IMG/VR virus record: IMGVR_UViG_3300018080_000105
Location: 1-64,000 of that record
DNA: 64,000 nucleotides
Source of the DNA: a virus
Reading direction: 5' to 3' (one strand)
A program made the translations under genes and the position numbers. Below, in pieces: positions 28,325-62,371 of the stretch; positions within the stretch are counted from its first letter, which is position 1; each line of letters opens with the position of its first letter. The notes under the pieces were generated by a model. It was not told where the DNA came from. It saw only the letters and a program-made list of their open reading frames with translations, and ran no database searches.

Positions 28325-28705
28325 TCAGGCACTCGCGGCGTGAGTATGAATACTCAGAATCGCGTGAGCCAGTTCCTGGTCTTCCTTTGACAGGTGAGCG
28401 GCAGCCACTTTGATGTTGTCAGTCTGAGGATCTTCTGCCAGTCCGGAGTCAACAAGCTGAGCATCGAGTGCCTGGCTTGCAGCATCCAGCATGGAGTTCG
28501 GTGACTGTGCAGCGGCTTGCTTTTCGTGAGCGTTCCGCAGTTTGCCAGCCATCTGGAGCATCTGTGCAGCCTGTTCGTCGTTCTCTGGTCGGATGTTGAA
28601 ATCCTGGGCCAGCTTGGCGAAGAAAGGCGGCGTGTACAGACGGTGCATCACCATTGAGTGAGCATCGTCAAACGACATTGGATTGTTGGGAGTCTGATCA
28701 GTCAC
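28325..28705 (-). CDS. Small head protein with K-x-A motifs (126 aa)
   Basis: AKLAQ, EKQAAA, IKVAAA; directly after the capsid gene. Confidence 0.7.
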   Translation of the reverse strand: MTDQTPNNPMSFDDAHSMVMHRLYTPPFFAKLAQDFNIRPENDEQAAQMLQMAGKLRNAHEKQAAAQSPNSMLDAASQALDAQLVDSGLAEDPQTDNIKVAAAHLSKEDQELAHAILSIHTHAASA

Positions 28706-28794
28706 GAGACTGGTTCCTTTATGAATTGAGGCTGCGGGAGAGGCACCCAGCAGAACGCCTGCCGGGTGCTCTCATCAGTCCCGATGAACAGAGG

Positions 28795-29724
28795 TCACGC
28801 GAAGTCCGCCCGCGCCAGGCCGCCAGAGTGGCCAATGGAGCCACCACAGGTTTCATAGCTGAAGAACTCCAGCATGTAGGCCTCGCGTCTCACGTACATC
28901 GTTGTATCCTCCAGAAGGTAGGATTTCCCGATGAACTTGGGGTCTGCGAACATGAACATCGTGTCATCTGGGACCAAGTCTCGCTTGATCGTGATGATCC
29001 ATCGCATGTTCATGAATTCGGTTTCAGCCCAGCCGTTCTTGACGACGTCCTGGCTGAAGTCACCACCCATTTCGTCACGACCGAACTTCTCGACTTCCTT
29101 GATCGTAACGTTGTTGATCAGTGCTGTGTGAGCTTCCAGATGGCTTGGCCCACGAGGCATGATCTTACGGGCGTCCTGCAACGTCTCACGAGTGATACCA
29201 CCGGAGATCGTTTCCCACTGCACAACGTTGCCGTTGTACGGTACAGGAGTGTCCGGGCCGATCATGGCCTGATTCACGGCAGACAGGAATTTGCTGTCTT
29301 CCTCTGCCAGCATATCCTTGATGGAGTTATCCGACAGAACCTGTCGAATGTCCATCACCCAGGTACGCAGCTCGTCAACGTCTTTGACGAAGCGAGGGGT
29401 AACGATGCGGTCGAACATCACGCGGTAGCGAGGACCACGGATGTACACGTTCGACGGCAGAGTTGCGAACGGGATAGAGATGGCTGCCGGTGAATCCGGT
29501 TCCTTGTCGACGATCTTCACTGGCTTGTCAGTGTCGTACTGACGGTCCAGTTCGTCGTTGCTGATTTGCAGCGGGGGAAGGATTCGACGGTAAACGCCAT
29601 CTTCCCGCATGGTTGTGCGGGTGAAGTCGTTGACCGCGTCGATAGCCTGTTTCTCCATTCCAGGAGTGTTGAGCTGCTCAAACAGTGTTTCGTTGAGCAT
29701 GTCGATTTCGGCACGAGTCGCCAT
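28795..29724 (-). CDS. Major capsid protein, HK97 fold (309 aa)
   Basis: Follows protease, scaffold and decoration genes; backbone-helix pattern RIVTPRFVKDVDELR...DIRQVLSDNSIKDMLAEEDSKFL; strong GGAGG RBS; EKQA at residues 24-27. Confidence 0.85.
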   Translation of the reverse strand: MATRAEIDMLNETLFEQLNTPGMEKQAIDAVNDFTRTTMREDGVYRRILPPLQISNDELDRQYDTDKPVKIVDKEPDSPAAISIPFATLPSNVYIRGPRYRVMFDRIVTPRFVKDVDELRTWVMDIRQVLSDNSIKDMLAEEDSKFLSAVNQAMIGPDTPVPYNGNVVQWETISGGITRETLQDARKIMPRGPSHLEAHTALINNVTIKEVEKFGRDEMGGDFSQDVVKNGWAETEFMNMRWIITIKRDLVPDDTMFMFADPKFIGKSYLLEDTTMYVRREAYMLEFFSYETCGGSIGHSGGLARADFA

Positions 29725-29784
29725 TGTATTTCCTCCGTGAAAGTCCCGCTGTGAAGCGGGGCGGATTAGTTTGAAACTACTTCA

Positions 29785-29812: not shown

Positions 29813-29827
29813 GAAAGATCAGGTTAC

Positions 29828-30494: not shown

Positions 30495-30956
30495 CTACTC
30501 GGTCGGCGGTTTGAGTCCCAGCCCTTTGAACAGGTTGACGCTCGACTGCTTTTCGCGAGTCGTTCGCTGACCAACAAAGGGAGTCGTAAGACTCGCACCG
30601 GGATCATGACTGGTGCCGGCAGCCGAAGCCTGCTTGACACCTGTACCGAGCTGTGATTCGTCTCGGTTGCGGTGACCCGCGGCCTTGATCAACAGTTCAA
30701 GGGCCTGGGCCGGATCTTTGAGCATTTCCGCACACTTCTCAGCCTGACTCGGCTGAATGCGTTCATGCTTCACAAGGGTCTCAACGACTTGCGGGATCAG
30801 GCTATCAACCTGGGCCTGCTTTTCGTTGGTTGCCTGCTCAGCCGCGGCGGCTTTTTGCAGGGCTGCATCAGTTAGACGGACGTGCTCGATTACACGTTCA
30901 GGCATTGTCATGCCGTCGGTGTCGATCGCAGCAGCGTTATCAGATGGAGTAGGCAT
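30495..30956 (-). CDS. Scaffold-like helical protein (~153 aa; start moved to MPTPSD)
   Basis: GGAGG RBS; QKAAAA, IKAAG, VKQASA. Confidence 0.65.
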   Translation of the reverse strand: MPTPSDNAAAIDTDGMTMPERVIEHVRLTDAALQKAAAAEQATNEKQAQVDSLIPQVVETLVKHERIQPSQAEKCAEMLKDPAQALELLIKAAGHRNRDESQLGTGVKQASAAGTSHDPGASLTTPFVGQRTTREKQSSVNLFKGLGLKPPTE

Positions 30957-31015
30957 CGTTTCGATTCCTCCGTGATTGCCTGTTTGAAACTGGGTCAAGC
31001 GGAAACCGCGTACGG

Positions 31016-32455
31016 CTACTTACCGTACGCCATCATCTCCTGAATGTGGCTTTTCAGATGGTTACGCAGCTGACGCTCCGTGGTGCCATCTTCGGCGGCC
31101 TTTTGCTCGTACTTGCCCTGGCGTTTGAAGTCCTGGACAGCCTGAGCGATTTTCATACCTTCGGTCATTTCCGGAGGAGCAGGTGCTCCACCTTCCATCG
31201 GAGGCATGTTGGCGTCCGGGCCGGCAAGACCAGCTGGAGCACCTTCCAGACCGCCACCTTCGAGAGGAGCTTCCGCGGGAGCACCGGCACCAGCCAGTTC
31301 TTCCAGAGGAATACCCAGTTCTTCCAGGGCAGCCACCAGCTGCATCAAAATCTCTTCCTGGGAAGCCCCGGCAAGTGGATCTCCACCGCCTTCGGCCAAC
31401 GGGTCACCGCCAGCCATGGGATCTTCACCGATAGCAGGAGCTGCTTCTCCGCCGCCTATCAGGCCGCCGAGATCACCACCGCCTCCGAGATCTTCCTCGC
31501 CGCCGCCCGCGGGGGCACCTTCTGCAGGAGCGGCCTCAGACTCCCCCGGCGTTTCTCCCCCGGCACCTTCAGCTTCGCTGGCGCCCGAAGTTACATCACC
31601 GGCTTCGTCATGGTCTTCACCGTCAGCAGCGTCAGCAGCCTGCTTGTTGAAGCCAGTCAGGTAGTTGCCGAGAAGCTCAGCATCCAGACGGGCATCTTCG
31701 AGCACGGCAGCAATCTCGTTGCCAACCAATTCCTGAGCAGCTTGCTTTTCGATGCCGAGCTGAGCCGCGAGCTGGTAACCAGCCGCCAGATCAGCGTCGA
31801 CTTCTTCGTTGCCACCTTCAGCAACAGCAGCCGCAGCTTTTTCAATCAACTGAGAAGTCTCAGTGATCTCGTTGGTGTCGGCAGCAGGAGCAGCGTCAGC
31901 CGCTTCCTTGGTTGCAGCTGGTGCGGGCTGTTCGGTCAGTTGATTTCCCTGACCGGTTGCCAGGTCCGCGAGGATCGAGTTTGCCAGCTTCGTATGAACT
32001 GACAAAGAATCCTGCAGACTCAGACTGGCATACTTGTGCCCGTCAAGCGAGTCGTTGTCGGTGCGAGCCGGGTGAGATGATCCAGGATCATCTTTGCCAC
32101 CCTTGTAGTCGTCCTCTGTCCCAGGGTCTTCCCCGGTGGCCGACTGGTTCGTGCCGATGTTCAGCTGGACATCGTCCTGCTGGCCAGGCTTAGCATCGGA
32201 AGCCTGATTGACTCCCGGAGCGCCCTGGTCTTTGTTGACATCGGCGGTGTGTTCGGATCCGCGAGAACCTTCCGACGCTTCCTGGCCGCGGTTGTCCACG
32301 TCCTTGGTCGCGTGAGTGGTTGCTCCCTGGTATCCACCGGGATCATCCGGCGTTGGGGTTTCTGCTGCTTTCTCAGCAGCAGCTTTTTCCTGGCCGTCGA
32401 TCGGCTGAACGAGTTTGTTCAGAGAATCAAACAGGCTTTGGGTCTGTGTACTCAT
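31016..32455 (-). CDS. Prohead scaffold/core protein (479 aa, acidic, low complexity)
   Basis: Between protease and capsid genes; largely disordered; at least nine K-x-A motifs. Confidence 0.7.
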   Translation of the reverse strand: MSTQTQSLFDSLNKLVQPIDGQEKAAAEKAAETPTPDDPGGYQGATTHATKDVDNRGQEASEGSRGSEHTADVNKDQGAPGVNQASDAKPGQQDDVQLNIGTNQSATGEDPGTEDDYKGGKDDPGSSHPARTDNDSLDGHKYASLSLQDSLSVHTKLANSILADLATGQGNQLTEQPAPAATKEAADAAPAADTNEITETSQLIEKAAAAVAEGGNEEVDADLAAGYQLAAQLGIEKQAAQELVGNEIAAVLEDARLDAELLGNYLTGFNKQAADAADGEDHDEAGDVTSGASEAEGAGGETPGESEAAPAEGAPAGGGEEDLGGGGDLGGLIGGGEAAPAIGEDPMAGGDPLAEGGGDPLAGASQEEILMQLVAALEELGIPLEELAGAGAPAEAPLEGGGLEGAPAGLAGPDANMPPMEGGAPAPPEMTEGMKIAQAVQDFKRQGKYEQKAAEDGTTERQLRNHLKSHIQEMMAYGK

Positions 32456-32499: not shown

Positions 32500-34008
32500 T
32501 TAGGCTGCGTAATTCTGCAGCAAGACCAGATCGGCTGTCAACGCTAAATCGGGTTTATGGGTAGGTTGTGCCCCGAGAAAACTCAGTTGGTACAGGGCAT
32601 ATTCTTCGGCCAGCTTACTCACATCACTGTTATCGGAAGCAACCTTCTCGTTCCCACTACGAAGAACAGGAGCTTCTTCCAGGTACAGTGCTGCTCGCGT
32701 CACTCGATCCTGCACGTGTGCCGGATGTAGTGAGAAGTGGCTGGCCAGCTTGGCTGCCCACGTCTCGAACCGGGGCGGTGCGACGGCAACTGACGGTGCG
32801 TAGTGACTTTTCTTCACTCGCGCCGGCAGATCTCCCTTCTCCAACATCCGTGTAAAGATCCCCGGGAGTTCCCGGGAAACCAACGCTGACACGGTCGCCG
32901 CTTTCTCGTGAGAGATATCGGTCGTGGCAGCGAGGAACGCGGACACTGGAAGGCAGATCTGCTGATCTGCCATTGCGCGCAGAGCGTACGCAAACTTATA
33001 GCGGAACTGTGGAGGCAGTTCCAAGTCAGCGTCCTGCACAGAGTCCCGAAACGCTAAGGCAGAAGTCGCCGACAGCGTATTCGGATCCTCGTGTATCTGG
33101 CTTTCTCGGGCGGCCAACAGGTAGGCCGTTTTGATCAGATGCTCGACTTCTTTGGGATAATCACCCTGCAGCATCATTTCGATTGGTTCCACAATGCCCA
33201 TCTGATGGGCCAGCTCGGCGCTCTTAATCACACGCCCATGAACGGCGGCGGATTTCTCCAGAGCGCCCATCACATAAGCGATGCGGTCAGCCGGCCGGTA
33301 GACGTTGCTGATATCGAAGAAGCTGGGTTGTGGGTTGTCAGCGTGCAGATGGTGGATACCGCCATCAATCTCGATCAGCGACCCAATGTTGTCGCGAAGC
33401 CCACCAGCTTTGCACATACCACCCTGGTAGGTCCCGGAACAATAATCAGCAGTAGTAGGAGCCACGTTCGCACAATACGAACAAACGTCGTGCGGAACGG
33501 AGCAGGCCATTGAGACAGCGATCTCTTTGTTCGCTGCCAGCTTTTCCATCTCACGATCAGCAATCAGCCCGCCGTTACGCCGGGCCGCGGCCTCGTTAGC
33601 GTTGAGAGCGACCAGCAGTTCGATCCGCTTCATGGGATCATGCCATGCAGATTTAACCACACGGCCGTAGCTCTTCTTGGGATCTTTGTTCTGATGGTTG
33701 CGATAGAAGCGAGCGAACTTCTCAAAGGTCGGGTGGTACTCGCGACAAACAGAAGCACGGAACCCATCACCGTTACGGTTCGGCCCGTAGAACTCCGTGG
33801 CGCCCATTGCCAACATGTGGACGAGCACCTCGTCGGACGCCACCTTCTCGCGGATACGATCAATGTCCCGGAGCAGGTCGTCAGAAGCGCGCTTCACGAA
33901 CGCATCACGGTCGCTGCCCGTTAGGCCGCGACCTGTGAGTTTGACTTCGCTTACCACGGGCTCGTCGTAATTGAGCGAGTCCGGAGTGACAACTTTGACG
34001 ATGCTCAT
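32500..34008 (-). CDS. Prohead maturation protease (HK97 gp4/S78-like fold) with Cys-rich insert and long C-terminal extension
   Basis: GPNRNGDGF, His in FYRNHQNKD...SYGRV, Ser in AVSMAC, closing FFDISNVYRPAD; CSVPHDVCSYC...C...C insert. Confidence 0.8.
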   Translation of the reverse strand: MSIVKVVTPDSLNYDEPVVSEVKLTGRGLTGSDRDAFVKRASDDLLRDIDRIREKVASDEVLVHMLAMGATEFYGPNRNGDGFRASVCREYHPTFEKFARFYRNHQNKDPKKSYGRVVKSAWHDPMKRIELLVALNANEAAARRNGGLIADREMEKLAANKEIAVSMACSVPHDVCSYCANVAPTTADYCSGTYQGGMCKAGGLRDNIGSLIEIDGGIHHLHADNPQPSFFDISNVYRPADRIAYVMGALEKSAAVHGRVIKSAELAHQMGIVEPIEMMLQGDYPKEVEHLIKTAYLLAARESQIHEDPNTLSATSALAFRDSVQDADLELPPQFRYKFAYALRAMADQQICLPVSAFLAATTDISHEKAATVSALVSRELPGIFTRMLEKGDLPARVKKSHYAPSVAVAPPRFETWAAKLASHFSLHPAHVQDRVTRAALYLEEAPVLRSGNEKVASDNSDVSKLAEEYALYQLSFLGAQPTHKPDLALTADLVLLQNYAA

Positions 34009-34019: not shown

Positions 34020-35030
34020 CTAGTTCACGCCACTGCTGAGAGCCGTACCAGCGTTCCGGTAGGCGTTCGTCAGGTCGCGGCCAAACATATAGTTGCCGAG
34101 CAGGCCGACGCCTGCGCCCATAAGTCCGCCGCCAATTTTCCCGCCTATGCCGCCAAGTCGCGGGGTGTATCTACCCACACCTGTACGAGGCGCCAAATGT
34201 CCTGGCATCGCAGACGTACCAGCTCGCAATCGTTCCGCAACAATAGAATTCGGGCGTACGCGTTGCCGCAATGCCTTCCGCTCTGCTTGTGATTGTGAAC
34301 TGTAGCGGTCAAGGTCGCGCTGTGCCCTGTTCGGCAGCGCCGCTCGACGCTTTTGCTGTTGATCCCGAATATACTCTTGCTGAGCAAGCATGGTTTTCTG
34401 GTCACGCAAATTTTGCACGTTGCGAGCTTCTGCCGGATCCGGTTTATTGCCGAACAACTCTTCAACATTGTACTTGCCAACTGCCTGCCGAACTTTACGC
34501 GTATCATGCACGCGGTCAGCTACGTGCCCAGCCGCTGCGCCCGCCGCACCACCTGCCGCGGGCATCCCCCAATCAGTTGCCATCGCCAAATTACTTTCAG
34601 CAGTCGGCGACAATCCGGCCTCGTCTTGATAAGTCTCAGGCGTTATCTTATCGCCAGTACCCGCAGCGTCGAATCGACGCTGCACCGATTCAGGAGTCTC
34701 GATCCCTCCGTTATTGTACTTACGAGGTTGCTCACGAACCCCGGGAGCCTGTCGCTGATCCCACCAGTTCTTGCCAGCAGCACCAGACGCGCCAACGCCC
34801 GCACCCAGCAGCGAACCCAGGATCGCATTACGGAGCCATCGCTTTTTCTTACGCTTGCTCAGCGCACTTGCCAAGAGCCCGGTGCCAAGGCCGACACCGC
34901 CACCAATCAACGCAGAGCGACCCACATCGACCGCCTGCTTCTCATGGCCCACACTAAGCACAGCCTGGATTGCCACGAGACGTGACGCGTCATCAAGCGT
35001 CAGTATATTGGGGTCAAATGATTGAGGCAT
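34020..35030 (-). CDS. Glycine-zipper putative internal (ejection) protein (~336 aa; start moved to MPQSF)
   Basis: EKQAV followed by GGGVGLGTGLLASAL, GSLLGAGVGASGAAG and C-terminal GGIGGKIGGGLMGAGVGLLG; no Cys. Confidence 0.6.
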   Translation of the reverse strand: MPQSFDPNILTLDDASRLVAIQAVLSVGHEKQAVDVGRSALIGGGVGLGTGLLASALSKRKKKRWLRNAILGSLLGAGVGASGAAGKNWWDQRQAPGVREQPRKYNNGGIETPESVQRRFDAAGTGDKITPETYQDEAGLSPTAESNLAMATDWGMPAAGGAAGAAAGHVADRVHDTRKVRQAVGKYNVEELFGNKPDPAEARNVQNLRDQKTMLAQQEYIRDQQQKRRAALPNRAQRDLDRYSSQSQAERKALRQRVRPNSIVAERLRAGTSAMPGHLAPRTGVGRYTPRLGGIGGKIGGGLMGAGVGLLGNYMFGRDLTNAYRNAGTALSSGVN

Positions 35031-36402
35031 GTTGACTTCCTTGTGAGAGTGCTGCCTGATCACGAAGTTTCTTGTCGGCGTCAAGGATCTGATCCTGCTC
35101 GAATGTGTCGAGAGCGCCCTGCTGGAGCTTCTTCCGCAGAAGACTCTGTACCAGCATCCGCTGCCCGGCAATGTTCGGCGACAACTGCACCAGATCGTTG
35201 TATGCGTCGGTCACTTCCGGGGCATCGTAGCCAGAAATAACCTCGTCGTTCAACATGAGGTCCTGCAGAGTGGCTTGCGAATTGATTGCCCGCATCTGCG
35301 CCTCGTGCTCAGGATCGTGCAAACTAGCCAATGCCCCGCTCACCCGTTCATCTTCCGACGGCCCGCCCAGCTTCCCGAGACCTTCCGCAAGGTTAGTCGC
35401 GGCAGAGGCTCCGATCAGCGTCGTAAAGGGGTCCATCGACTGCTTTTCCCGCTCGTCAGATGATGAACCCAAGATCGAAGGGCTGACGAGGGGTTCCACG
35501 AAAGGGGCCAGGTCGTGCTCCTGATGGGCAGCCGCAGCCTTATTGGCTTCTGCCAGCTCGCCAGCAGCGATTCGGACATCTTCCGCAGCTTTCAGGACAC
35601 GGTTGACGATCGTGAATGGCGCCTCAGTGGCGTCCAGGTCATCGACAGTTACCGGAAAGGCGTGGCGGCCGGGACTCAGCACAGAGTGACCCAAGTGGTG
35701 GTCTGACAGCTTGGTCAGCCCCGGGTTGACGCTGATCAGCTCGTCCATGACCCGCTTGCCTTTGTTGCCGTGCATCAGCACAACTGCTTCCTTCACAACC
35801 GGAATCGGGTGAGCACCCGGCCGGCGGAAGTAGTCAGTCAGATCGTTGAACGCACTACCCAGTTCATCGAACGCACTGGCATGCTTGCGGCGAGCATCGT
35901 CACAAGCCCACTGCAGCCGCCGCTGTTCGTTGAGTACCGGTCGGAATTCGTTCTTCTCAGATGGCAGGTCTTCCGCCTTCTTGATCAGCATGTCACGAAG
36001 TTGCGACCACTCAGGCAATGATGCCTTCTTCATCAAGCGATGCCGCCGTTGCAGCATAGCTCGCGGACTATAGTTGTACTCCGAGGAGACCACCGTATCG
36101 ATCACAGAGGCTGAGGCCTCTTTGGTCTGTGGCGGGTACAGCGTGTGCTTGACCACTTGCAGGTCTGCCAGCGGGAACTCCGCGCGCTTCTGCAACAAGT
36201 CTTCATTGCTTTTCCGCTGGTGAGTCGTCTGGCCGACGTTGTACGCGTGCACAACCAGGTCGAGTTCTCCCGGGCGCAACTGCATCTCGCGAGCAACCTT
36301 GACGATTGCTTTGTTCGGATCTTCTCCGGCAAGCACGGCATCGGTGGTATGCGAAATCGCATCCATCATGCGTCGCTCTGTTTCCGGTGCGATCTTTTTC
36401 AT
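35014..36402 (-). CDS. Putative internal head protein (462 aa, helical)
   Basis: Multiple K-x-A sites (KKIAP, KEASA, KKASL, KKAED, KHASA, KAAAA); located in the head module. Confidence 0.6.
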   Translation of the reverse strand: MKKIAPETERRMMDAISHTTDAVLAGEDPNKAIVKVAREMQLRPGELDLVVHAYNVGQTTHQRKSNEDLLQKRAEFPLADLQVVKHTLYPPQTKEASASVIDTVVSSEYNYSPRAMLQRRHRLMKKASLPEWSQLRDMLIKKAEDLPSEKNEFRPVLNEQRRLQWACDDARRKHASAFDELGSAFNDLTDYFRRPGAHPIPVVKEAVVLMHGNKGKRVMDELISVNPGLTKLSDHHLGHSVLSPGRHAFPVTVDDLDATEAPFTIVNRVLKAAEDVRIAAGELAEANKAAAAHQEHDLAPFVEPLVSPSILGSSSDEREKQSMDPFTTLIGASAATNLAEGLGKLGGPSEDERVSGALASLHDPEHEAQMRAINSQATLQDLMLNDEVISGYDAPEVTDAYNDLVQLSPNIAGQRMLVQSLLRKKLQQGALDTFEQDQILDADKKLRDQAALSQGSQHASII

Positions 36403-37794: not shown

Positions 37795-38518
37795 GGTCGG
37801 TTCCCCAAAAGATGTTGAATTCGTCAGCGGCCTGCGCGATCTTGATAGCCATCTCAGGCGGGAGTTCAGAAAGGTCTTTGGCGCCCTTCTGCGAGTTGCA
37901 GACACGGCACAATGTAACAGCGTTGCCTGGTCGAAGGCCGTGCCCCTTGGACAACGGCTTTACGTGGTCAGTACACAGACTACGCTGACTGTTACAGTTC
38001 ACGCAGGCCGGCTGCGACTCCCGGAGAGCCTGCTCCATTTCAAGAGTCCACGCGGCATCCAACTGCTGTTTCCTTTCCATCCTCTCGCGGACTTTCATAC
38101 GAGCATACGCAGGCGTCCTTGACTGTCCGTGCGTGCTATTAACCGCACTAGCCCGGCTCCGCTGATAGCACCCGCAGGACTGTGTGTGCCCGTTGCGGAG
38201 CTTGGCAGCCATCACGGCAATCTCACGACCACAGTCACAAAGACATGGCCAGAAATTATTTCCAGGAGCAGGCCGGCGAAGAATCATCAGCCGACCGTAA
38301 CGAGCACCTACTACGAGACGCGATGGCAAGTTGTCCAAGTGCTCTCTCAGAACACAACCACAAGACGTGATCTTGCCCTGCTGGAGGTCCCCAGACCTGA
38401 TCGACTTCTCATTACCGCAGGTACAAACGCATAACCAATACACGCCCTTCCGCGAGGTGTCTCGCTGAAGGACGGTCAGCCGTCCATATCTTCGTCCTGT
38501 GCGGTCAATGAGTTTCAT
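37787..38518 (-). mobile_element. Free-standing HNH homing endonuclease with duplicated N-terminal DNA-binding repeat
   Basis: Two GxRYGRLxx...WxCxCxCG...SCGC repeats; HNH core CVNC...TDHVKPLSKG...NAVTLCRVCNSQK. Confidence 0.88.
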
Positions 38519-40974
38519 CAGTTTGCAACATCCCGAAGACTAAGGTCAGAACTGTCTTCTTCTGGGTACGGTTCAATTGTCTTTTGCTTTAAGAAGAGCA
38601 CGATATCGCCAGTCGACTCGAACGCGTTCCGCAATGAGTCTTCCAGTTCGGGCATATCCTGCTTGCCGTACCTATCGGCAAACTGCTCCTGGTGCCAGTA
38701 GAACTGGAACAGGATACGCCCTAATCGATCAACCGACCGGATGATATCAGGAATGTACCGATCAATCATCGTATCGTCTCGCACAGCTTTCAGCATGGAG
38801 CCGATCATCGCTGTGTCGAAGACTTCCTTCTGACCGGAAGCAGCTGCGTCTGCTACAGCTGCGTGATCCATCGGTCCCGGTGTGGCGCCAGGGCGTACAT
38901 CATAAACCGAAGGATCGGTGTTAGCTGCTGACAACGCCTCGACAGGAACCTCTTCTTCCTGCATGGCGATCGTGTTGCCCTGGAAGCCCATCGGGTTGTA
39001 GCCGCCCTGCATCGCTTCCGGGAATGATGGAGCCATCGGGGCTCCCTCGGTCAGGAAGGGATTAGCGTACTTCACGCGACAAACCATGCCGTTACCAGCA
39101 TGGCTTTTGTGCTTCGCAGTCTTCAGCAGTTCCTGAGAGGCCGGCACAGAAAGCCCGTGGTCATAAACCAGGTGGACCTGTGCATCCCGCGGAGTTAGCC
39201 GGTGACCATTGACGATGTAGCGGGTGCCCTCGTCTACGATTCGCAGCTTTGCGGTTTTCTTCATGATGTTCGCAGTGGCGTCGAACAGGTTGCCAGGCTG
39301 GATCGGCGGATCCTTGCTCGTGGTGTCGTCAGCACAGCAAGGCTCGATATGAGCCTTGTTCTTCCGACGCTCATCCCAGTTCGTCATCTGGACTTTGACA
39401 ACCTTGCAACCCTTCGGCACAAACAAGTCGCCTCGACTGGACCGCATATCGGTTCCGTCTTTGGCATCCAGATGAATCCGTTGCCCGTCAGACCATTTGC
39501 TATACCGATCATAGTTGGATGACGTATCGTAGTCTGTCCAACGACGCATACCCACTTCACGACTACGCGGGTGGTCAGTCTCGAAGTCGACTTTGTAAGA
39601 GTCATCGCCGATCGAATCTTCCACGCGGAACGTACAGGTCGCGTTGCGTCGCGGTCCAACAAGCATGTAGCGATCACCAACAGTCAGAGAGCTGGCGTCA
39701 GACTGACTATCGAGCCAGTCTTGCCAATTCTCTTCGCCGCCCATTTCTTCTTCCTGGCCGGCGGTCCAGATGTCGTGGCGGTCGAAGTTGCCCCAGCTCT
39801 TGTCCCCTTCAAGCCGCACAACCAGGCAGGTGCTTTCACGCCCATCTGGGCCGACTGGGTTGATGACTACCAGACACTTATCGAACTCGCCCGGCTTCGT
39901 CAGCACCTGATAGATGCCAGTTTCACCAGGATTGACGAGCTTTTGTTCGACCTGCAGGTTTACCGCCACAGAGATCTCATCGCCGGAGCGGTGATCTTTG
40001 ATCAGCATGCCGTCTCGCAGCAGCTTTTCCTGGTCCTCTTCGGCGAGGTCCTCGGGCGGCCCGTCCACCATACTCTGTTCGCTGGTGATGATACGGATCT
40101 TCTGACGTGCGTCCGGGCCGTCGTCATCGTCGGCCGCAGTCTTCTCGCCCAGGATGGAACCGGTGATGATTTGGTTCTTATTTACCGAAGCGTACGGGTC
40201 ATCCATCACGGAGCTGATGTTGCTCCGGTTGCGTGCCTCTGACACGGCATCGGTCAGCACATCCATCCCGTGCCAGTTAGCGAAGGCAGCTGCGATCTTG
40301 GGCTTCCGCTGCATCATTTCCACAACCGCCTGCAACGCTGGCAGGCTGGCTTGCTTCATGAAGTCACTCAGATCGAGCTTCGTTTGACAATGATCCGCAA
40401 ATTCGGAGATGCTGTCTTGCAGAGGCCGTGTCGCTAAGTGCCCAAACACTGGCATGAACGCAGCGACAGCAGACGCGTACTTGTGCGGCGACTCGCGGAG
40501 CTTCGAGAGTTCTGGCTGGCTCACGCCGATAGCCGACAGGTTACGGTCAATACCTGCGCCAATGATGTTCGGCTTACGATTGATGACGTAGTTGAGCCAG
40601 TTCTCTTTGAGCGGGACAAACATGTCCTGATTCTTCAGGTACAACAGTTCGTGGCCCTTCAGCTCACCTTGAAGAAAGAACACTGGAGCAAACAGCTGAG
40701 AGCTGCCTACCTTAAAGGCCATCACACCGACAGCCTGGGTGTTCTCTTCGTTGCGGTCGAGCAGCTGGAAGCCCAGCTCGTGATCGAGCAGGGTCGGAGC
40801 TTTATCCCGCATGTAAGCGTGAGCCAAATTGGAGAAGGCCTGCTCAAAGGGAGCGTCGGCACCATCTCCTCCCAATTCGGCTACTTTGATCGTCTGTTCC
40901 GGCGCGTGTGCGTAGTCACGGACACGGTTCATCCAGTAGTCGATTTCATGAGTCTGAGGCATGGGGCGCTCCAT
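38518..40974 (-). CDS. Large putative internal head polyprotein (818 aa)
   Basis: Segments separated by IKVAE, KYASA, KQASL, EKTAA, KKTAK, KYANP; lies between RNAP and the head genes. Confidence 0.6.
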   Translation of the reverse strand: MERPMPQTHEIDYWMNRVRDYAHAPEQTIKVAELGGDGADAPFEQAFSNLAHAYMRDKAPTLLDHELGFQLLDRNEENTQAVGVMAFKVGSSQLFAPVFFLQGELKGHELLYLKNQDMFVPLKENWLNYVINRKPNIIGAGIDRNLSAIGVSQPELSKLRESPHKYASAVAAFMPVFGHLATRPLQDSISEFADHCQTKLDLSDFMKQASLPALQAVVEMMQRKPKIAAAFANWHGMDVLTDAVSEARNRSNISSVMDDPYASVNKNQIITGSILGEKTAADDDDGPDARQKIRIITSEQSMVDGPPEDLAEEDQEKLLRDGMLIKDHRSGDEISVAVNLQVEQKLVNPGETGIYQVLTKPGEFDKCLVVINPVGPDGRESTCLVVRLEGDKSWGNFDRHDIWTAGQEEEMGGEENWQDWLDSQSDASSLTVGDRYMLVGPRRNATCTFRVEDSIGDDSYKVDFETDHPRSREVGMRRWTDYDTSSNYDRYSKWSDGQRIHLDAKDGTDMRSSRGDLFVPKGCKVVKVQMTNWDERRKNKAHIEPCCADDTTSKDPPIQPGNLFDATANIMKKTAKLRIVDEGTRYIVNGHRLTPRDAQVHLVYDHGLSVPASQELLKTAKHKSHAGNGMVCRVKYANPFLTEGAPMAPSFPEAMQGGYNPMGFQGNTIAMQEEEVPVEALSAANTDPSVYDVRPGATPGPMDHAAVADAAASGQKEVFDTAMIGSMLKAVRDDTMIDRYIPDIIRSVDRLGRILFQFYWHQEQFADRYGKQDMPELEDSLRNAFESTGDIVLFLKQKTIEPYPEEDSSDLSLRDVAN

Positions 40975-42939: not shown

Positions 42940-42944
42940 TCGTA

Positions 42945-50224: not shown

Positions 50225-50232
50225 GCTGCTGA

Positions 50233-50442: not shown

Positions 50443-50492
50443 GATTGCCTCCAGAAAGAAAAGAGATCGTAAGCAGCAAACGCTGCCGTCGA

Positions 50493-50699
50493 TCAGTAAG
50501 TGATGGGTGAAGCGTGACCCGTCGTGTGCAGTTCGCTGTCACTCAGCCCAACGGTTTTCCCGACAGCATAGCCATCAAGACGAACCTGGTTGAGAGAGTT
50601 GGGATCAGCGGCAGCCGCAATTTCAACCGTGCCGAGTTTGCCTCGCCATGGTGATTTTTGACTGGTCACTTTGACACGGTCGTCAGCATTGAACGCCAT
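50493..50699 (-). CDS. Stand-alone KOW/SH3-like protein, paralogue 1
   Basis: FNADDRVKVTSQKSPWRGKLGTVE...QVRLDG...VGLSDSEL; GGAGG RBS. Confidence 0.6.
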   Translation of the reverse strand: MAFNADDRVKVTSQKSPWRGKLGTVEIAAAADPNSLNQVRLDGYAVGKTVGLSDSELHTTGHASPITY

Positions 50700-50709
50700 G
50701 GTAGGCCTC

Positions 50710-51120: not shown

Positions 51121-51135
51121 GGTCTGGTCCTCGCG

Positions 51136-51768: not shown

Positions 51769-52195
51769 TCATCATCTGATTGATATTTACCTTCCGGCCC
51801 CGATTGTCCGCTCCGTAGAGCGTCACCAACCACCGGCCGAACTTCCCTTTTTCCGACGCTGGCAGATCATCAAACCACTTATTGTGGCCTTTCTCCGTGC
51901 GGATTTTGAACTTCAGTCCCAGCTGTCGTGTTTCAGAATCGTGCCGATTGAGGGCGTACCGCGTCAACAGCTTCTGCAGGTGATTTCTGGCTCGCTCACC
52001 CGCTTTCCGCGTCACGAGAGGCCAGATCTCCGGGGAGTCGATATCCAAAAGGCGGCCTGTTTGAAAGGCCGCCCAGTGGTTGTAACCGAGATCCGCGTGG
52101 TAGTAGACCGTGTCACCGTCGTAGACGTCGAAGATGTAACAGTCAGATTCGTACCGCGGTTTCAGTGACTCAGCAATGTCTTCCGGAAAAGCCAC
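51728..52195 (-). CDS. Thermonuclease (SNase) family protein (~155 aa; GTG start)
   Basis: VYDGDT, RLLDIDSPE, GKFGRWL, INQMMIAAGYA. Confidence 0.85.
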   Translation of the reverse strand: MAFPEDIAESLKPRYESDCYIFDVYDGDTVYYHADLGYNHWAAFQTGRLLDIDSPEIWPLVTRKAGERARNHLQKLLTRYALNRHDSETRQLGLKFKIRTEKGHNKWFDDLPASEKGKFGRWLVTLYGADNRGRKVNINQMMIAAGYAETYSGGS

Positions 52196-52196
52196 T

Positions 52197-52535
52197 CTAC
52201 CACTCTTGGTAATAGACACGCCTACCGCCGCCGAGCAAGCCAAACAGGCCGGTCGGCTGATAATTCCACACGTACCCACGTGGACGGCGAAGCGGTACTC
52301 TGACCGGTACTTTTGGGTAAAAGTATTCCGGGCCGAGGACACAGTGCGAAGAACCTGCATTACCGGTGTTACACGGACAATCATCTCCACATTTGCAACC
52401 TGGCCCGCAAGGACAGACGTCCCCGCAGCGGCAGCCTTTGGCATCAGCTGTTTCATAAAAACCAGCGAAAGTAGCTGGCGAAGCACACAACAGCAACATG
52501 ATTGACGCAACAATAACCTTCATGATTTCCTCCAT
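52197..52535 (-). CDS. Secreted small protein with metallothionein-like CxC cluster
   Basis: Signal peptide MKVIVASIMLLLCASPATFA; GCRCGDVCPCGPGCKCGDDCPC. Confidence 0.7.
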   Translation of the reverse strand: MEEIMKVIVASIMLLLCASPATFAGFYETADAKGCRCGDVCPCGPGCKCGDDCPCNTGNAGSSHCVLGPEYFYPKVPVRVPLRRPRGYVWNYQPTGLFGLLGGGRRVYYQEW

Positions 52536-52540
52536 GATGT

Positions 52541-52906
52541 TCAGGCTGGCGGTGTTTCCGGCAGCCTTCCATTAGCTCTGAGAATGTCCTGGGCTTGCTT
52601 CTCTACGGCGCTTTTGAAGTCGTCGTCGAGAGCGGCAGCCGCAATCATCTCTGATGCCCACCGCGAATGCCATAGCATCTGCTCTTTGTAGTACGGATCG
52701 GCCGCGATTTCCTCCGGAACCGGAACCGTAGGCCCAGGCAGGACGTATCCTTTCGCTACGCGATCTCGATGGTCAGCCAACAATTTGAACAGCTCCTCAT
52801 TGGCTTGGGCCTGGTTGGCTTGCATCTGCTCAATCCCCTTTTGAAGGATTGAGGAGATTGGAGACGGCTGCGGAGGCTGCTGATCTGATCCAACTGGGTC
52901 AGTCAT
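52541..52906 (-). CDS. Hypothetical helical protein (~121 aa; start moved to MTDPVG)
   Basis: Coupled to the upstream gene. Confidence 0.6.
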   Translation of the reverse strand: MTDPVGSDQQPPQPSPISSILQKGIEQMQANQAQANEELFKLLADHRDRVAKGYVLPGPTVPVPEEIAADPYYKEQMLWHSRWASEMIAAAALDDDFKSAVEKQAQDILRANGRLPETPPA

Positions 52907-53579
52907 CTTCGGATTCCGTGAGAGTTTCTGCGATCTGCTGCATGACCTGTTCACGCAACGCAGGGTTTTTCTGGAATGCTTCCAGTGTCTTTTCACCCAG
53001 CGGTGTTCTGGGAGCACTCAGACCTTCCGAACGAAGAAGGCTCAGCGTGTCGGCGTCGGCTGCCACGGGGTCCGCAGGAGCAACCACGGCAGGAGGTTGC
53101 GGGGCTGGTGGTTCGTCGCCATCCGGCCACAGCGACCACAGGGCGGCGACGGCCGCCAACCCTGGCACGCCAGCCAGGCTGCCGATCGTAGCCAGCTTCC
53201 CGAGAGACAGATCAGTCTTCCCGGCAGCAACTTTCTCAACTTGCTGGTTTTGATGCTCCATCGCTACCTGGCGTTCGATCTGCGAGTTGGTCTCTTTCTG
53301 ACGTAGCAAGCCGACCAGGTCCTGCACAGTTGTGTCGACCTGCTCGGTTTCAACTTCATCATCCAGAATGACCCGCTCCCCAGCGCTTGGCAGCCCGTGC
53401 CGGATAGCTGACATCTGCTTAATCATGTGGTCAGCGTCTAATTGCGTCTGCAGAAACGCTCGTCGTTCTTTGGGGGTCATCTGAGACAGCAGGTTAGTTC
53501 GCCGAGTACGTGTTGTAAGCGGTACAACAGCTCCGGAACCGGGAGTTGCTGCGGGGGCCTGATCAGACATAGTGATCAC
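52899..53579 (-). CDS. Membrane-anchored hypothetical protein (226 aa)
   Basis: One TM segment LATIGSLAGVPGLAAVAALWSLW followed by a Pro-rich linker. Confidence 0.65.
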   Translation of the reverse strand: MITMSDQAPAATPGSGAVVPLTTRTRRTNLLSQMTPKERRAFLQTQLDADHMIKQMSAIRHGLPSAGERVILDDEVETEQVDTTVQDLVGLLRQKETNSQIERQVAMEHQNQQVEKVAAGKTDLSLGKLATIGSLAGVPGLAAVAALWSLWPDGDEPPAPQPPAVVAPADPVAADADTLSLLRSEGLSAPRTPLGEKTLEAFQKNPALREQVMQQIAETLTESEDD

Positions 53580-58456: not shown

Positions 58457-60121
58457 TCACCTTAGTCCAAGAACAGAGCCAGTTACACCGCGAATCATAC
58501 CGCCCCACAATCCCATGTTCTGCAACTTCTTCTGGGCTTGTGGTTTGAGACCGCCAAGAACTCCAAGAACGCCACCCGCGATATGTGCCGTCGCCAAATC
58601 CACGCCGGCTGTCGCCAACCCGCGAATGAAATGCCGCGGCGACAACATCGACGGATTACCATGTAGTTGCTGCACGCCGGTAACCAGTCCGGAAGCAGCC
58701 GCTGCGTGCATCGGTGGAGTGTGGCGACCAGCATCACCCCAAATTGCACGATTAAACGCGTCAACCGGGACAGACTGTAACGCTACCCCGCGACTGCCCG
58801 TGTACCCACTGGAGTTCACTGCGCGTTTAATTCGGTTGACACTTTTCTCAAACTGATCGGACGCTGTGAGTCCCAACGTGTCGAGGTAATCCAAAGCCTG
58901 CTGCTGCGCGCTGGCCTTGTAGTGATTCATATAATCAATTTCGCTCGGAGCGATGTTCTGCTGCGTGACCGGCTGCAGGAATGACTTCCGCCACTGCGGC
59001 TTCCCGGTCGCGTTCTGGTTCATCTGTGCATTAGCCAAGCCTTGTGGGACATGTAAAGCCGCGCCGCCAAGCCCGCCGAGTATCGCCAGGTTCCGTCGCA
59101 GTTTACCGCGTTCCAGGTACTCTTCTGGCAGCAACTGCTCAGCAAGCCAGCCACCGCCGTAACCCAGCCCGGCGCCCAGCAACCCAGACACGATGGAGTT
59201 GGACATTGCCGAAGGCCCACCGGTCAGCTTACCCGCCGCACGGTATGGCAACCCCAGGTACTCCAGCGCAGAGGCTTTCTTGACCATGATCCAATTATCA
59301 GAGTCAGACGGGCCAACCTCAGATTCGGCGATGACTTTGTCGACCCCGTCGATCGAGTTGACGGCTTTCTCCCACTGCTCATAAACCTCTCGGCCGTCAG
59401 AGTCACCAAGCACGATCCACGCCGTCTTGTTTTCCGGATGCCAGTAAACGTAACCGTAACCAGGCATAGCCGGCAGATCTTTAATCGCCGTCTTTAGGGC
59501 GTCCCGGATGGCAGCCGCGAGCTTTAAGCGTTGGGTGACAAGTGCCGGGACCTGTCGCCACAGCGACAGTTCGCCCTTTTTTTCGATGCGTTTGATAGTT
59601 TCATCAGCCACGGTTTTCCATGCCCTCCTGGCGTCTACTGCGCGGTCGTCGAGATAGAGGTCCGCTACAACTTTGTCTGAGGCATCTTCCGGCTGGTCTG
59701 GGTTCTCGTTGATATGGTCGAACGGAATATCGTGTTCTTCCAACCAGCTGCGAACCAGTTTTTTGTCACCACGCACCGTGTTAATGATGATCTGATAACC
59801 CTCGTCCCGAAACCGCTGCATACTCTTCTTGGCGCCCGGCCTCGGCTTCTCGATCTTCTTCGGATCGAACTTGTCGTACATCGAAGCTAGCGTGCCGTCG
59901 AGATCTACAGCCACTGTGGGGAGTCGGTCCGCACGCGACTTCCCCGCAGCGGACTTTCGTCGCCCATCCAACACAGCACTGAGGCCGTCCAGCGGCAGAG
60001 AGGCTTCGGGGGTTTGTATGATCGTGGATAGTCGCGACATTGCGTTTCCCATGACTCCATGGCCTCTTTGAACCACTTCCAGAAAGCCGCGATCGCTCGC
60101 CGCCTTTGTTTGCTTCTCCAC
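58457..60121 (-). CDS. HAD-phosphatase / glycine-zipper multidomain protein; true start probably further upstream
   Basis: HAD motifs VAVDLDGTL, IINTVR, K, LYLDDR; C-terminal Gly zippers; K-x-A linkers; no Cys. Confidence 0.8.
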   Translation of the reverse strand: MEKQTKAASDRGFLEVVQRGHGVMGNAMSRLSTIIQTPEASLPLDGLSAVLDGRRKSAAGKSRADRLPTVAVDLDGTLASMYDKFDPKKIEKPRPGAKKSMQRFRDEGYQIIINTVRGDKKLVRSWLEEHDIPFDHINENPDQPEDASDKVVADLYLDDRAVDARRAWKTVADETIKRIEKKGELSLWRQVPALVTQRLKLAAAIRDALKTAIKDLPAMPGYGYVYWHPENKTAWIVLGDSDGREVYEQWEKAVNSIDGVDKVIAESEVGPSDSDNWIMVKKASALEYLGLPYRAAGKLTGGPSAMSNSIVSGLLGAGLGYGGGWLAEQLLPEEYLERGKLRRNLAILGGLGGAALHVPQGLANAQMNQNATGKPQWRKSFLQPVTQQNIAPSEIDYMNHYKASAQQQALDYLDTLGLTASDQFEKSVNRIKRAVNSSGYTGSRGVALQSVPVDAFNRAIWGDAGRHTPPMHAAAASGLVTGVQQLHGNPSMLSPRHFIRGLATAGVDLATAHIAGGVLGVLGGLKPQAQKKLQNMGLWGGMIRGVTGSVLGLR

Positions 60122-60325
60122 AACGTATGTGATTTCCTGACTGACTTTGCTGCCCGCCGATAATCTTTCGGGGGAACCTTCCTCTGCAGGTTTCGCCGGC
60201 GGCGAGCTCTCTGCTTCGGGGTCATCGGACGCTTCACAGGTTGTGTTGAAACCATGCTTTCTCCTGAATAAAAGGATCGTCAGAAGTGCGGCGGGGCAAG
60301 TCTACCAGATCACACGCAGATGCCG

Positions 60326-61243
60326 CTATGTGCCTTTTCGAGGCCGCTTCTTCGGAGTCTTCTTCGGAGTCTTCTTCGGAGTCTTTTTCCGTGGTGGAAT
60401 TTCGGGAACTTTTCGCTTTGGACGTTTCTTTCGCTTGGGTTTCTTCAGTACGTGTTTTGGTGCCTTCTTTTTTCGCTTTTCATTCTTTCCCTCCAACACG
60501 TCCTGCCGGCCACGGGCTCTTTTCTTCCTGCGACGCGGACCTTTTGGTTTACCGTCCGGATGATCTTCCTTCCACAGCACCTTCTCTTCTCTCACCATAG
60601 GCGTCTTACCATCGACGTCGACTGGAATTGGCTGTTCCTCAATCGACGGCAACACGGGAAGATCATCGAGGTCAATCTCCGGAGGCACAATCACTCCGTT
60701 CCGAATATCTTCAGCAATCTGCATGTGAGTGTACGGGTACTCACCGTTCTCGGCTTTCCACTCGTCGTGAACTTGTTGCACAAGATCAGGCAACAACGCC
60801 GCAGAGCCATTGTTGTCGATGACAATGTCACAGTCTTCCGGACGAATTTGACAAGAGTCCACATTCTCCGGCGGATGACGTTGCGACGCATCAACCCAAA
60901 TGGACACATCCACCAGACCGATATCTTTCAACGCCTGCAACTCAGCAGTGCGGCGGATGCCTTCAAGAATGTCATTCTCTTCCAGCATGTCAACGTAGAG
61001 TGTCAAACCGCTGGGCTCGTTGTACTGCCAGATGATGTCGGCCCACTCGGCACGGTGGTTGTGGCGATCATCCCAGCACTCCTCGATGCTCTGATAGCCG
61101 TAAACCGACTTCAAAGTCTCATAGACGACACGTGCCGCGCCTTCGCTGGTGGATTCTTTGTACGCAAGGCCACTGATGCTGGAAAGAATTCGTGCTGTTG
61201 TACCTTTGCCGTGCCGGCCGTAGCCGCAAATCGCAACTGCCAT
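60326..61243 (-). CDS. dNMP-kinase-like P-loop protein with a very basic C-terminal tail
   Basis: ICGYGRHGKGT P-loop, EGIRR..EL, DIVIDNNGS; tail KPKRKKRPKRK...KKTPKKTPKKTPKKRPRK. Confidence 0.7.
   Translation of the reverse strand: MAVAICGYGRHGKGTTARILSSISGLAYKESTSEGAARVVYETLKSVYGYQSIEECWDDRHNHRAEWADIIWQYNEPSGLTLYVDMLEENDILEGIRRTAELQALKDIGLVDVSIWVDASQRHPPENVDSCQIRPEDCDIVIDNNGSAALLPDLVQQVHDEWKAENGEYPYTHMQIAEDIRNGVIVPPEIDLDDLPVLPSIEEQPIPVDVDGKTPMVREEKVLWKEDHPDGKPKGPRRRKKRARGRQDVLEGKNEKRKKKAPKHVLKKPKRKKRPKRKVPEIPPRKKTPKKTPKKTPKKRPRKGT
60348..60383. repeat. 12 bp tandem repeat, three copies, encoding (T)PKK units
   Basis: TTCTTCGGAGTC x3 on the plus strand. Confidence 0.9.
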
Positions 61244-62371
61244 TTATCGCACTCCCTGCAGGAAACGGTCCAATGGATGATGCACCAGTGGCTTCCGTTG
61301 ACCTGACAGGTATGAAGACAGCTGACGCATGGAACGATCTGGATCAGCAGCATTTGCCAGCCGATCCTGTGCGGCAGCCTCGCTGATTGCTCGGTCACCG
61401 CGATGCTTGACCGCCCCCACATGGTTTACCAGATTATCGAGCACTCCGCGAGTGTGGTCGTACTGAAACGGAGTCTGATTGATTGCATTCATGTAGACGC
61501 TGCCGGCCTGCTTGGGTTCGCCGTACGGTTTTCCTTTGTACTGGTACTTCAACGGCCCCAGCACATTAGTTGTACGAACATAGTCAGCCGTCAGCTCCTC
61601 GCCAGAGACAATGTCTCGCAGAGCCCGCATCTGGACATACCCGTCACCTTTGACAATTTCAGTGTTCGGACTGTCCGAGTGATTGGTGTAACGAGCGTCA
61701 TCTGATTGTTCATAGACGTGCTTGCCGTCTTCGTTATCCGGCAAAACTGTCATCAGGCGATCAACGATGATGTCGCCATCGCTGAACTTCTGCGCAGCGA
61801 ACAAACCTTTACCGTGAATAGCCGACTCCCCCACACGGACGGACCTCGCGGCCGCCTTTTGCATGTGGATCATCGACGGCTGTCGTCGTTTCTTCTTACG
61901 GATAGCAAACGTCACATGGAACGGATACTGCGGCGGGCCGAGGCCCAGGTTACGACGAAGCTCCATCAGCCCCGGCGACTTGGCTTCCAGCGCCCAGCAC
62001 TTGGAAACACCGTCCCACGTATGCGGTGTGATCTTTCGGACCACGCCCAGGTTGAACCCGAACATTTGCCCGCGTTCTTTGATCCCGTCCGGGCCGCCGA
62101 TCGATTCCAACTCTTCAGGACGCGCCACAGAGATGTGAGCGTTGTACTGCCCGCTGGAGTCCTGTTTCGGTTGCTCGACCCCGGGTTCGTCAAGAGCCTG
62201 AAACGCACCATTCCCGATTGCATTGGGAACGTCAAGCAAAAGCCATCCAGAGTTGGAAAGGTACAGCTTCCCTTTCATCGCATATGACAGCGGGGGACGT
62301 GCGTCCGCCTGTTTATCTCGCTGCGACAATAGAACAGCCGCTTCCCCGATATCGTATAACGATGCAGACAT
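61244..62371 (-). CDS. 2H phosphoesterase + SET domain + C-terminal domain fusion
   Basis: 2H motifs HIS (H79) and HVT (H152); SET motifs SAIHGKGLFA, RYTNHSDSPN, ALRDIVSGEELTADY. Confidence 0.85.
   Translation of the reverse strand: MSASLYDIGEAAVLLSQRDKQADARPPLSYAMKGKLYLSNSGWLLLDVPNAIGNGAFQALDEPGVEQPKQDSSGQYNAHISVARPEELESIGGPDGIKERGQMFGFNLGVVRKITPHTWDGVSKCWALEAKSPGLMELRRNLGLGPPQYPFHVTFAIRKKKRRQPSMIHMQKAAARSVRVGESAIHGKGLFAAQKFSDGDIIVDRLMTVLPDNEDGKHVYEQSDDARYTNHSDSPNTEIVKGDGYVQMRALRDIVSGEELTADYVRTTNVLGPLKYQYKGKPYGEPKQAGSVYMNAINQTPFQYDHTRGVLDNLVNHVGAVKHRGDRAISEAAAQDRLANAADPDRSMRQLSSYLSGQRKPLVHHPLDRFLQGVR

Follow-up and report, generated by a model that had tools for sequence, protein, structure and literature searches.

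Head-maturation proteases of the phage T4 gp21 and herpesvirus assemblin fold are the closest described counterparts of the system considered here, which lies in a 64,000-nucleotide stretch of viral DNA (IMG/VR virus record IMGVR_UViG_3300018080_000105, positions 1 to 64,000; hereafter the window, whose numbering is used unless another sequence is named) and comprises a predicted protease of this fold and neighboring genes whose products carry a recurrent K-x-A motif (Lys, any residue, Ala). Herpesvirus assemblin is made as a protease fused to a scaffold-like C-terminal part and is released by cuts at (V/L/I)-x-A then S. The phiKZ and SPN3US proteases have an N-terminal protease domain followed by a C-terminal extension. 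To our knowledge, the motifs cut by phage head proteases all end in Glu. In the T4 gp21 system, core proteins are chopped to small peptides, and the N-terminal leaders of packaged proteins and the capsid propeptide are removed (PMC9958956). The T4 substrates are the scaffold gp22, gp67, gp68, the internal proteins IPI-III, gpAlt, and the capsid proteins gp23 and gp24. In SPN3US and phiKZ-type phages the propeptides hold extra copies of the motif, and the SPN3US cleavages, bar self-cleavage of the protease, remove N-terminal propeptides (PMC10052503). Polyvalent proteins are multi-domain effectors (2H phosphoesterase, InPase, NUDIX, GNAT) predicted to be packaged, injected, and processed into units, and processing by a built-in metallopeptidase has been proposed (Iyer et al. 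2017, PMC5512222); the phrase “SET domain” is absent from the text of that paper.

Our reading of the window, held at a probability of roughly two in three, is that hydrophobic-(E/V/I)-K-x-A then A/S is the cutting site of a gp21-like head protease, which breaks down core proteins and trims packaged proteins or splits them apart. An earlier note on this DNA, which proposed that an S78-like protease cuts at K-x-A in many proteins encoded between positions 28,325 and 62,371 (the interval), knew of no description of such a specificity; for prohead proteases, a full-text literature search brought up none either. The window forms the beginning of one 184,021-bp contig of a large phage, nearly all of whose genes lie on the minus strand. 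Among cultured phages, Salmonella phage Arash (180.8 kb) and three Vibrio phages (∼187 kb) are nearest, sharing ∼29% identity in the capsid protein and 34-35% in part of the 502-amino acid (aa) protein. The features on which the argument turns are the following.

28325..28705, minus strand: putative 126-aa small head protein, downstream of the capsid gene; 3 K-x-A versus 0.9 expected
28795..29724, minus strand: major capsid protein, 309 aa (phrog_2522, major head protein)
29644..29652, minus strand: capsid-gene codons K25-Q26-A27, where propeptide cleavage is predicted; sole conserved K-x-A of the protein
30495..30998, minus strand: putative 167-aa small core protein; 5 K-x-A versus 1.3; true start probably near residue 30
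31016..32455, minus strand: 479-aa Ala-rich protein, between the protease and capsid genes; 10 K-x-A versus 3.2
32500..34008, minus strand: predicted 502-aa head-maturation protease precursor, with an N-terminal leader, a gp21-fold domain, and a C-terminal helical domain
33286..33837, minus strand: its predicted protease domain, residues about 58-241, the model range aligned to gp21 and herpesvirus proteases
35014..36402, minus strand: putative 462-aa internal head protein; 10 K-x-A versus 2.9
38518..40974, minus strand: putative 818-aa internal head protein; 8 K-x-A versus 3.4

K-x-A was counted in every minus-strand open reading frame (ORF) of the whole genome and compared with shuffles of each protein. 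Six genes in a contiguous block beside the capsid gene together hold 49 copies against 15.4 expected (p=7e-12), and the comparison with a composition-matched null that the earlier note had called for comes out as enrichment of these six genes. Their products (502, 462, 479, 167, 818, and 126 aa) are the most enriched proteins genome-wide, joined by one 534-aa tail-region protein. In an unbiased scan of 1600 residue-pair patterns with gaps of 0-3, K-x-A ranks first by nine orders of magnitude, with the runner-up at p ∼2e-3. The excess persists when residues are shuffled within 20-residue windows. The control patterns A-x-K, K-A, K-x-x-A, A-K, and K-x-x-x-A are at expectation in the enriched proteins, and neither R-x-A nor x-E patterns are among the enriched pairs of the scan.

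Judged by count, K-x-A marks these six genes rather than the full 34 kb. The 29 remaining genes of the interval have 45 copies in total versus 43.1 expected, so recurrence across many genes, as first claimed, stands for the genes beside the capsid gene only, and the remainder of the genome shows no excess (184 versus 175). Among the individual proteins that had been listed as motif-rich, those of 126, 462, and 818 aa are enriched, while those of 227 and 136 aa and the HAD and 2H/SET enzyme fusions, like the 320-aa protein, show no count excess and as a group have instead single sites at conserved positions. The tallies of at least 9 for the scaffold and at least 10 for the protease hold for the bare tripeptide (10 and 13) but not for the full five-residue motif, found only 4 and 5 times. 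The contrast drawn with tail proteins is real per residue (0.34 versus 1.92 K-x-A per 100 aa), yet the tail genes are simply at expectation (30 versus 23.1). The 534-aa tail-region protein (window 2950-4554, minus strand; 5 K-x-A versus 1.1) is the sole enriched protein outside the head module, an enrichment that may be chance given the 179 proteins tested. The idea that K-x-A alone works as a tag for the injected payload fails, with ∼184 of the 233 genome copies at chance level; flanks and conservation are needed as well. A position matrix for the flanks, trained on relatives' core sites, gives scores of at least 2 to 10/40 non-core K-x-A sites inside the interval and to 5/144 elsewhere (p=1e-4).

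The pattern replicates in relatives. Seven close genomes were compared (this genome and the syntenic module of six metagenomic relatives), and Arash, Vibrio phage D69, and the IMG/VR contig L002 bring the set to ten. Each of the seven genomes shows 2.6-3.9-fold enrichment of the same six ortholog families, and the interleaved 177-, 383-, 194-, and 120-aa families are not enriched over the same set. In Arash, gp220, gp225, and gp223, the top three ORFs genome-wide by enrichment, lie just ahead of the capsid gene; gp222, the homologue of the protease, is sixth, and K-x-A is again the top residue pair. It also tops the scan in D69 (50 versus 20.7, p=3e-8) and is enriched in L002. The pattern thereby recurs at ∼30% identity, and it co-occurs with a prohead-protease-fold protein in all ten genomes examined.

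Conservation points the same way. Lys and Ala inside K-x-A are more conserved than the other Lys and Ala of the same protein families. At 31 well-conserved sites, the first position is Lys in 88% (Arg in 1%), the third is Ala in 89% (Ser in 5%, Gly in 2%), and the middle residue is free; the two preceding positions prefer L/F/M then E/V/I, and the following position tends to be A/S. From these alignments the pattern looks like a set of enzyme subsites. It marks K-x-A as a short linear motif that is under selection and associated with the head module.

The enzyme proposed to read this motif is the 502-aa protein, which itself carries 13 K-x-A versus 3.4 expected (88 versus 22.9 in its family over the seven genomes). 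An AlphaFold model built on 30 homologues (predicted local distance difference test score, pLDDT, 79.8) matches T4 gp21 (5jbl_B) with Z=10.1 and a root-mean-square deviation of 3.3 in VIA-align, with 147/164 residues aligned over model residues 15-241; Foldseek gives the gp21 fold a probability of 0.97. The next-best matches are herpesvirus proteases (Z 3.5-5); Z is <5 for unrelated folds. According to the model, the N-terminal domain has the T4 gp21 / herpesvirus assemblin fold. Sequence comparison is silent: no Pfam family matches at E up to 5, including Peptidase_S77 and Peptidase_S78, a sequence search of the PDB gives no match, hhalign against T4 gp21 returns a probability of 0.3, and the Smith-Waterman score against gp21 (37) is inside the shuffle range (32.6 +/- 5.9). 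The S78 assignment made earlier is thus replaced by a fold match to T4 gp21. By tblastn, the protein also matches phage G gp19, annotated as a head maturation protease (PMC12484599). More than 700 metagenome homologues were found, many on contigs of 200-230 kb.

Eight residues are invariant in the 30 homologues: H105, S166, C176, C179, C190, C199, H222, and D232. H105 and S166 are also kept in phage G gp19, and their spacing is 61, compared with a His-Ser spacing in T4 gp21 that we take to be 55. With the gp21 sequence alignment no better than noise, the assignment of catalytic residues is a guess, H105 and S166 being the conjectured pair. Short stretches look like gp21 by eye, namely an N-R-N turn, a His following a helix, and a K-L-A-A-N helix ahead of the Ser strand, but this likeness has no statistical support. 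The four cysteines C176, C179, C190, and C199 form an insert in the protease domain (window 33400-33500, minus strand, residues 176-199) that T4 gp21 does not have, and phage G gp19 also carries cysteines there; the insert may be a zinc ribbon.

The arrangement of K-x-A along the 502-aa protein follows its domains. Conserved sites stand before the protease domain (39 and 54-55) and after it (251-252 and 262, in a low-confidence linker of the model), and five more are spread over the helical C-terminal half (293, 338, 368, 420, and 455). Phage G gp19 similarly has two K-x-A just before and two just after its protease domain. Such bracketing resembles the precursor self-release layout of phiKZ-type phages and herpesviruses. 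In some relatives, the protease gene and the gene for the C-terminal half of RNA polymerase beta-prime contain inteins, either LAGLIDADG or Hint (P0073, P0078, P0086, P0094, P0107; L004:41-3076; L007:668-3517).

The comparison with T4 gp21 thus joins a shared fold, a gene just upstream of scaffold-like and capsid genes, and many predicted substrates with a short P3-x-P1 motif to several differences: no sequence similarity, K-x-A where T4 has L/I-x-E, and a helical C-terminal domain of ∼250 residues and the four-Cys insert. phiKZ gp175 and SPN3US gp245 are likewise multi-substrate proteases of a head rich in internal and ejected proteins, a virion RNA polymerase among them, but their motif, A/S/G-x-E, ends in Glu, and the lineage here is a different, Arash-like one with genomes of ∼180-230 kb. 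Unlike in SPN3US, sites here also lie between enzyme domains. The structural match to assemblin is weak (Z 3.5-5), although the fold is related and P1 Ala and P1' Ser agree with K-x-A then A/S. P3 is Lys here and hydrophobic in assemblin, which has very few substrates compared with dozens of sites in about ten proteins here.

The capsid and the core proteins are candidate substrates. The capsid protein (29% identical to the Arash major capsid protein gp226, 84-85% in two close relatives) has the E24-K25-Q26-A27 sequence pointed out earlier; K25-Q26-A27 is its one conserved K-x-A, present in 7/7 close genomes, and Arash and D69 have K-E-A at residue 27. The site predicts loss of a 27-residue leader, shorter than the 65-residue propeptide of T4. 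The 479-aa protein (family 75 versus 29.3 over the seven genomes; conserved sites 23, 29, 141, 153, 205, 236, 271, 435, and 448) is a probable scaffold or core protein, the scaffold role being suggested by gene order alone. In the 167-aa family (35 versus 11.9), a single K-x-A is kept as an island within a variable, indel-rich stretch, and in the 126-aa family (26 versus 7.9) 26/40 lysines sit in K-x-A. The 462-aa protein, a weak match to the Arash structural protein gp220, has its sites within the first 317 residues and none in the C-terminal 145 (family 77 versus 21.6; conserved sites 35, 72, 94, 125, 231, and 317). The 818-aa protein (family 76 versus 25.8; conserved sites 30, 165, 207, 245, 278, 573, 618, and 635) gave no Pfam, PHROG, or ESM Atlas lead.

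Beyond the core block, candidate substrates were identified by the position, conservation, or matrix score of single sites. They are encoded by the following features, among which the RNA polymerase genes are listed for comparison.

61244..62371, minus strand: 375-aa fusion of 2H phosphoesterase, SET, and a helical tail (Pfam 2H-SAK and SET), a candidate polyprotein
58457..60121, minus strand: 554-aa fusion of a HAD phosphatase head (Pfam LNS2/PNKP-type HAD, residues 70-156) and a constant Gly-rich hydrophobic module
48904..53579, minus strand: genes for 371-, 136-, 210-, 261- (SNase-like), 158-, and 226-aa proteins, several with single high-scoring sites
43196..43879, minus strand: 227-aa protein, a candidate substrate, between the two RNA polymerase genes
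41044..48914, minus strand: two multisubunit RNA polymerase genes (Pfam, PHROG; 1475 aa, beta and the N-terminal half of beta-prime; 631 aa, the C-terminal half of beta-prime), with small genes between them

In the model of the 375-aa protein, K-x-A occurs at residues 20, 172, and 287, each in or next to a low-confidence linker (25-28, 163-182, and 284-290; pLDDT <50); the chance of all three falling there is ∼0.003. Across fifteen orthologs with varied architectures, K-x-A is found repeatedly after the N-terminal helix, in the 2H/SET linker, and directly before the conserved C-terminal tail, the last in 6/6 scorable cases. Because indel-filled linkers spoil column-wise conservation (Lys in K-x-A 0.40 versus 0.39 for other Lys in this family), a linker-level test was used: 14/15 orthologs have K-x-A in the 2H/SET linker versus 4.6 after shuffling within the linker. 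In the HAD family (n=15), conserved K-x-A sites precede the HAD domain, mark where the constant module begins (14/15), and occupy two further positions, with Lys conservation of 0.67 versus 0.43 for other Lys. The placement of the motif at domain junctions of the enzyme fusions, as the earlier note had it, is supported in both families.

The constant module of the HAD fusion (residues about 180-554) is Gly-rich and hydrophobic like membrane segments, and relatives swap the N-terminal head on it, with HAD, 2H-SET, or no head at all. A role in ejection or membrane insertion is possible, and the 554-aa fusion is a candidate packaged or ejected protein. In the accessory regions of two relatives, the motif carriers are the 2H/SET and HAD fusion families. 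Among relatives, 2H-SAK plus SET occurs with or without InPase, and NUDIX, GNAT, and peptidase partners are seen. The 375- and 554-aa families resemble polyvalent proteins in combining several unrelated domains that are shuffled among relatives. Unlike polyvalent proteins, neither the 375-aa protein (2H-SAK and SET only) nor the 554-aa protein (HAD-type matches only) has a metallopeptidase domain, and the junctions here carry the head-protease motif.

For the 227-aa family, the count over four genomes is 11 versus 4.5, with sites 27 and 195 conserved. Matrix scores of at least 2 were obtained for K75, K144, and K271 of the 371-aa protein, K26 of the 261-aa protein (SNase and phrog_452 matches), K140 of the 158-aa protein, and K116 of the 226-aa protein. 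By matrix score, the 371-, 261-, 226-, 158-, and 194-aa proteins and the portal C-terminus are weak candidates for further substrates. The RNA polymerase genes are unmarked (11 versus 12.9), and the C-terminal half of beta-prime is depleted of K-x-A over the seven genomes (13 versus 25.9, P=0.004). The Arash orthologs of this polymerase are the most abundant proteins in virion mass spectrometry, and the Arash virion preparation contained the RNA polymerase subunits and most module proteins among 116 proteins that included replication enzymes. Taking the “Coverage” column of the Arash Table 2 as sequence coverage was rejected, as a 129-aa protein with two unique peptides is listed there at 100%; the capsid value of 86.6% was left unused.

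Taken together, these data suggest a maturation scheme in which the protease precursor, the K-x-A-rich core proteins (479, 167, 126, 462, and 818 aa), the capsid protein, and some cargo would co-assemble into the prohead. The protease would cut after Ala, with Lys as P3 and Ala as P1. It would free itself from its own flanking segments, chop the core proteins to pieces of 10-100 residues, remove 27 residues from the capsid protein, and cleave the 2H/SET and HAD fusions at their leaders and at the linkers between domains. The bond after Ala is favored because a strict P3 and P1, a free P2, and a small P1' are found in T4, phiKZ, and assemblin. A cut after Lys is disfavored because it would need a strict P2' with an indifferent P1', an unusual combination. 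This is likely the familiar T4/phiKZ kind of system with a different code and with an extra use at polyprotein junctions.

Several observations weigh against cleavage at K-x-A by the 502-aa protein. Its link to proteases is structural, no search having connected its sequence to any protease family (Pfam, PDB, hhalign, Smith-Waterman), and the phage members of the fold family with known specificity take Glu, not Ala, at P1. The earlier note had expected the sites to map to disordered linkers; those of the 375-aa protein do, but ∼8/13 in the 502-aa protein are in confidently predicted helices or strands, so some conserved K-x-A may be structural. Three sites in the model, K119 within a strand and K97 and K156 within the protease fold, are probably structural. 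By count, neither enzyme fusion is enriched in this genome (HAD fusion 7 versus 3.7 expected, with controls A-x-K at 7 and K-x-x-A at 9; 2H/SET fusion 3 versus 2.0). Finally, the N-leader site of one 2H/SET subclade is K-Q-G.

Sites within helices also fit the best surviving alternative, an unlikely one, that K-x-A is a non-cleavage motif, either for docking core and cargo proteins to the inner capsid or to each other or for lysine modification, for example by the phage SET enzyme. Strict conservation of Lys and exclusion of Arg would suit a modification site as well, a viral SET enzyme methylates histone H3 in a K-S-A context, and motif-rich Arash proteins are detected in virion preparations. 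However, a docking motif is not expected at every domain junction of the enzyme fusions or bracketing a protease domain, and small residues at the Ala and following positions around a free middle residue are typical of protease subsites. Arash is motif-enriched with no detectable SET domain, which occurs in some relatives only.

A somewhat less probable alternative accepts cleavage but assigns it, after Lys, to another enzyme: a host protease or one of two further proteins whose genes lie in the same interval.

54619-56391, minus strand: trypsin-like 590-aa protein (Trypsin_2), with a signal-peptide-like start
56405-57244, minus strand: Peptidase_M10 protein, 279 aa (M10 and a peptidoglycan-binding domain)

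Lys is a P1 residue for trypsin-type enzymes and also for the HK97 protease when it processes its capsid protein. Against this assignment stand the strict requirement two residues downstream of the Lys, with none at the next residue, and the signal-peptide-like start of the trypsin-like protein. Both genes are in a variable accessory region, present in one of two relatives examined and unseen in the other, and are not conserved with the motif. Because Arash keeps the motif without a SET domain or a homologue of the trypsin-like protein, both of these enzymes were set aside as the agent behind it, and of the protease-like genes, that of the gp21-fold protein alone was found next to the motif-rich block in each of the ten genomes. 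An origin of the excess in composition or in Ala/Lys/Glu-rich low-complexity helices, suggested by the Ala-rich, largely helical nature of the enriched proteins, is highly improbable given the global and local shuffles, the control patterns, the conservation of the motif residues, and its recurrence in Arash, D69, and L002.

If cleavage at K-x-A by the gp21-like protease is correct, it would be a new specificity among phage assemblin-fold proteases, with P1 Ala and P1' Ser/Ala echoing assemblin. The combined rule of motif, flanks, and conservation would predict propeptides, mature termini, and packaged proteins in a clade of large, ∼200-kb phages known almost only from metagenomes. It would also supply a processing mechanism for phage polyvalent effectors without their own peptidase domain. 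The mature capsid protein is predicted to begin at residue 28, and the 375-aa protein to yield separate 2H, SET, and tail pieces by cuts after residues 22, 174, and 289; the two cultured relatives Arash and D69 make such predictions testable.

A wider form of the proposal, which we put slightly below even odds, is that a large, mostly uncultured clade of 180-230-kb phages, with Arash and D69 as cultured members and perhaps extending to megaphage G, uses an Ala-P1, herpesvirus-like K-x-A then A/S head protease that matures the capsid and cuts multi-enzyme polyproteins (2H, SET, InPase, HAD) into effectors inside the head. In that case, sequence could reveal what uncultured phages inject. In Bacillus phage G, the protease homologue gp19 (L022 14743-15645; 25% identity) has 8 K-x-A versus 2.4 expected, and its neighbor gp21 has 7 versus 2.8. 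The phage G head module overall is weakly enriched (20 versus 11, p=0.009) and the N-terminus of its capsid protein has no K-x-A, so the extension to phage G is tentative.

Gene order around the motif-rich block is partly conserved. In the direction of transcription, the interval starts with the 2H-phosphoesterase/SET fusion, a deoxynucleoside monophosphate (dNMP) kinase-like protein, and the HAD fusion; it continues with the M10 metallopeptidase, the trypsin-like protein, small genes including the SNase-like one, and the two-gene multisubunit RNA polymerase, and ends with genes for proteins of 818, 177, 320, 462, 383, 502, 479, 167, and 194 aa, the 309-aa capsid protein, and the 126-aa protein. 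The seven close genomes share one order, from protease through 479 aa, 167 aa, and 194 aa to capsid; in Arash, the protease gene is a few genes upstream of the capsid gene and the intervening genes differ. The dNMP-kinase-like protein between the two enzyme fusions (305 aa, window 60326-61243, minus strand) has an N-terminal P-loop part matching phrog_38514 and phrog_139 and no K-x-A excess. Between the 818- and 177-aa genes lies an HNH homing-endonuclease gene (243 aa, window 37787-38518, minus strand), which looks like a recent mobile insertion because none of six syntenic relatives has a gene at that position. The portal gene lies outside the window (genome 125101-127161, minus strand), ∼80 kb from the capsid and protease genes, and its product has one high-scoring K-x-A, 25 residues before the C-terminus.

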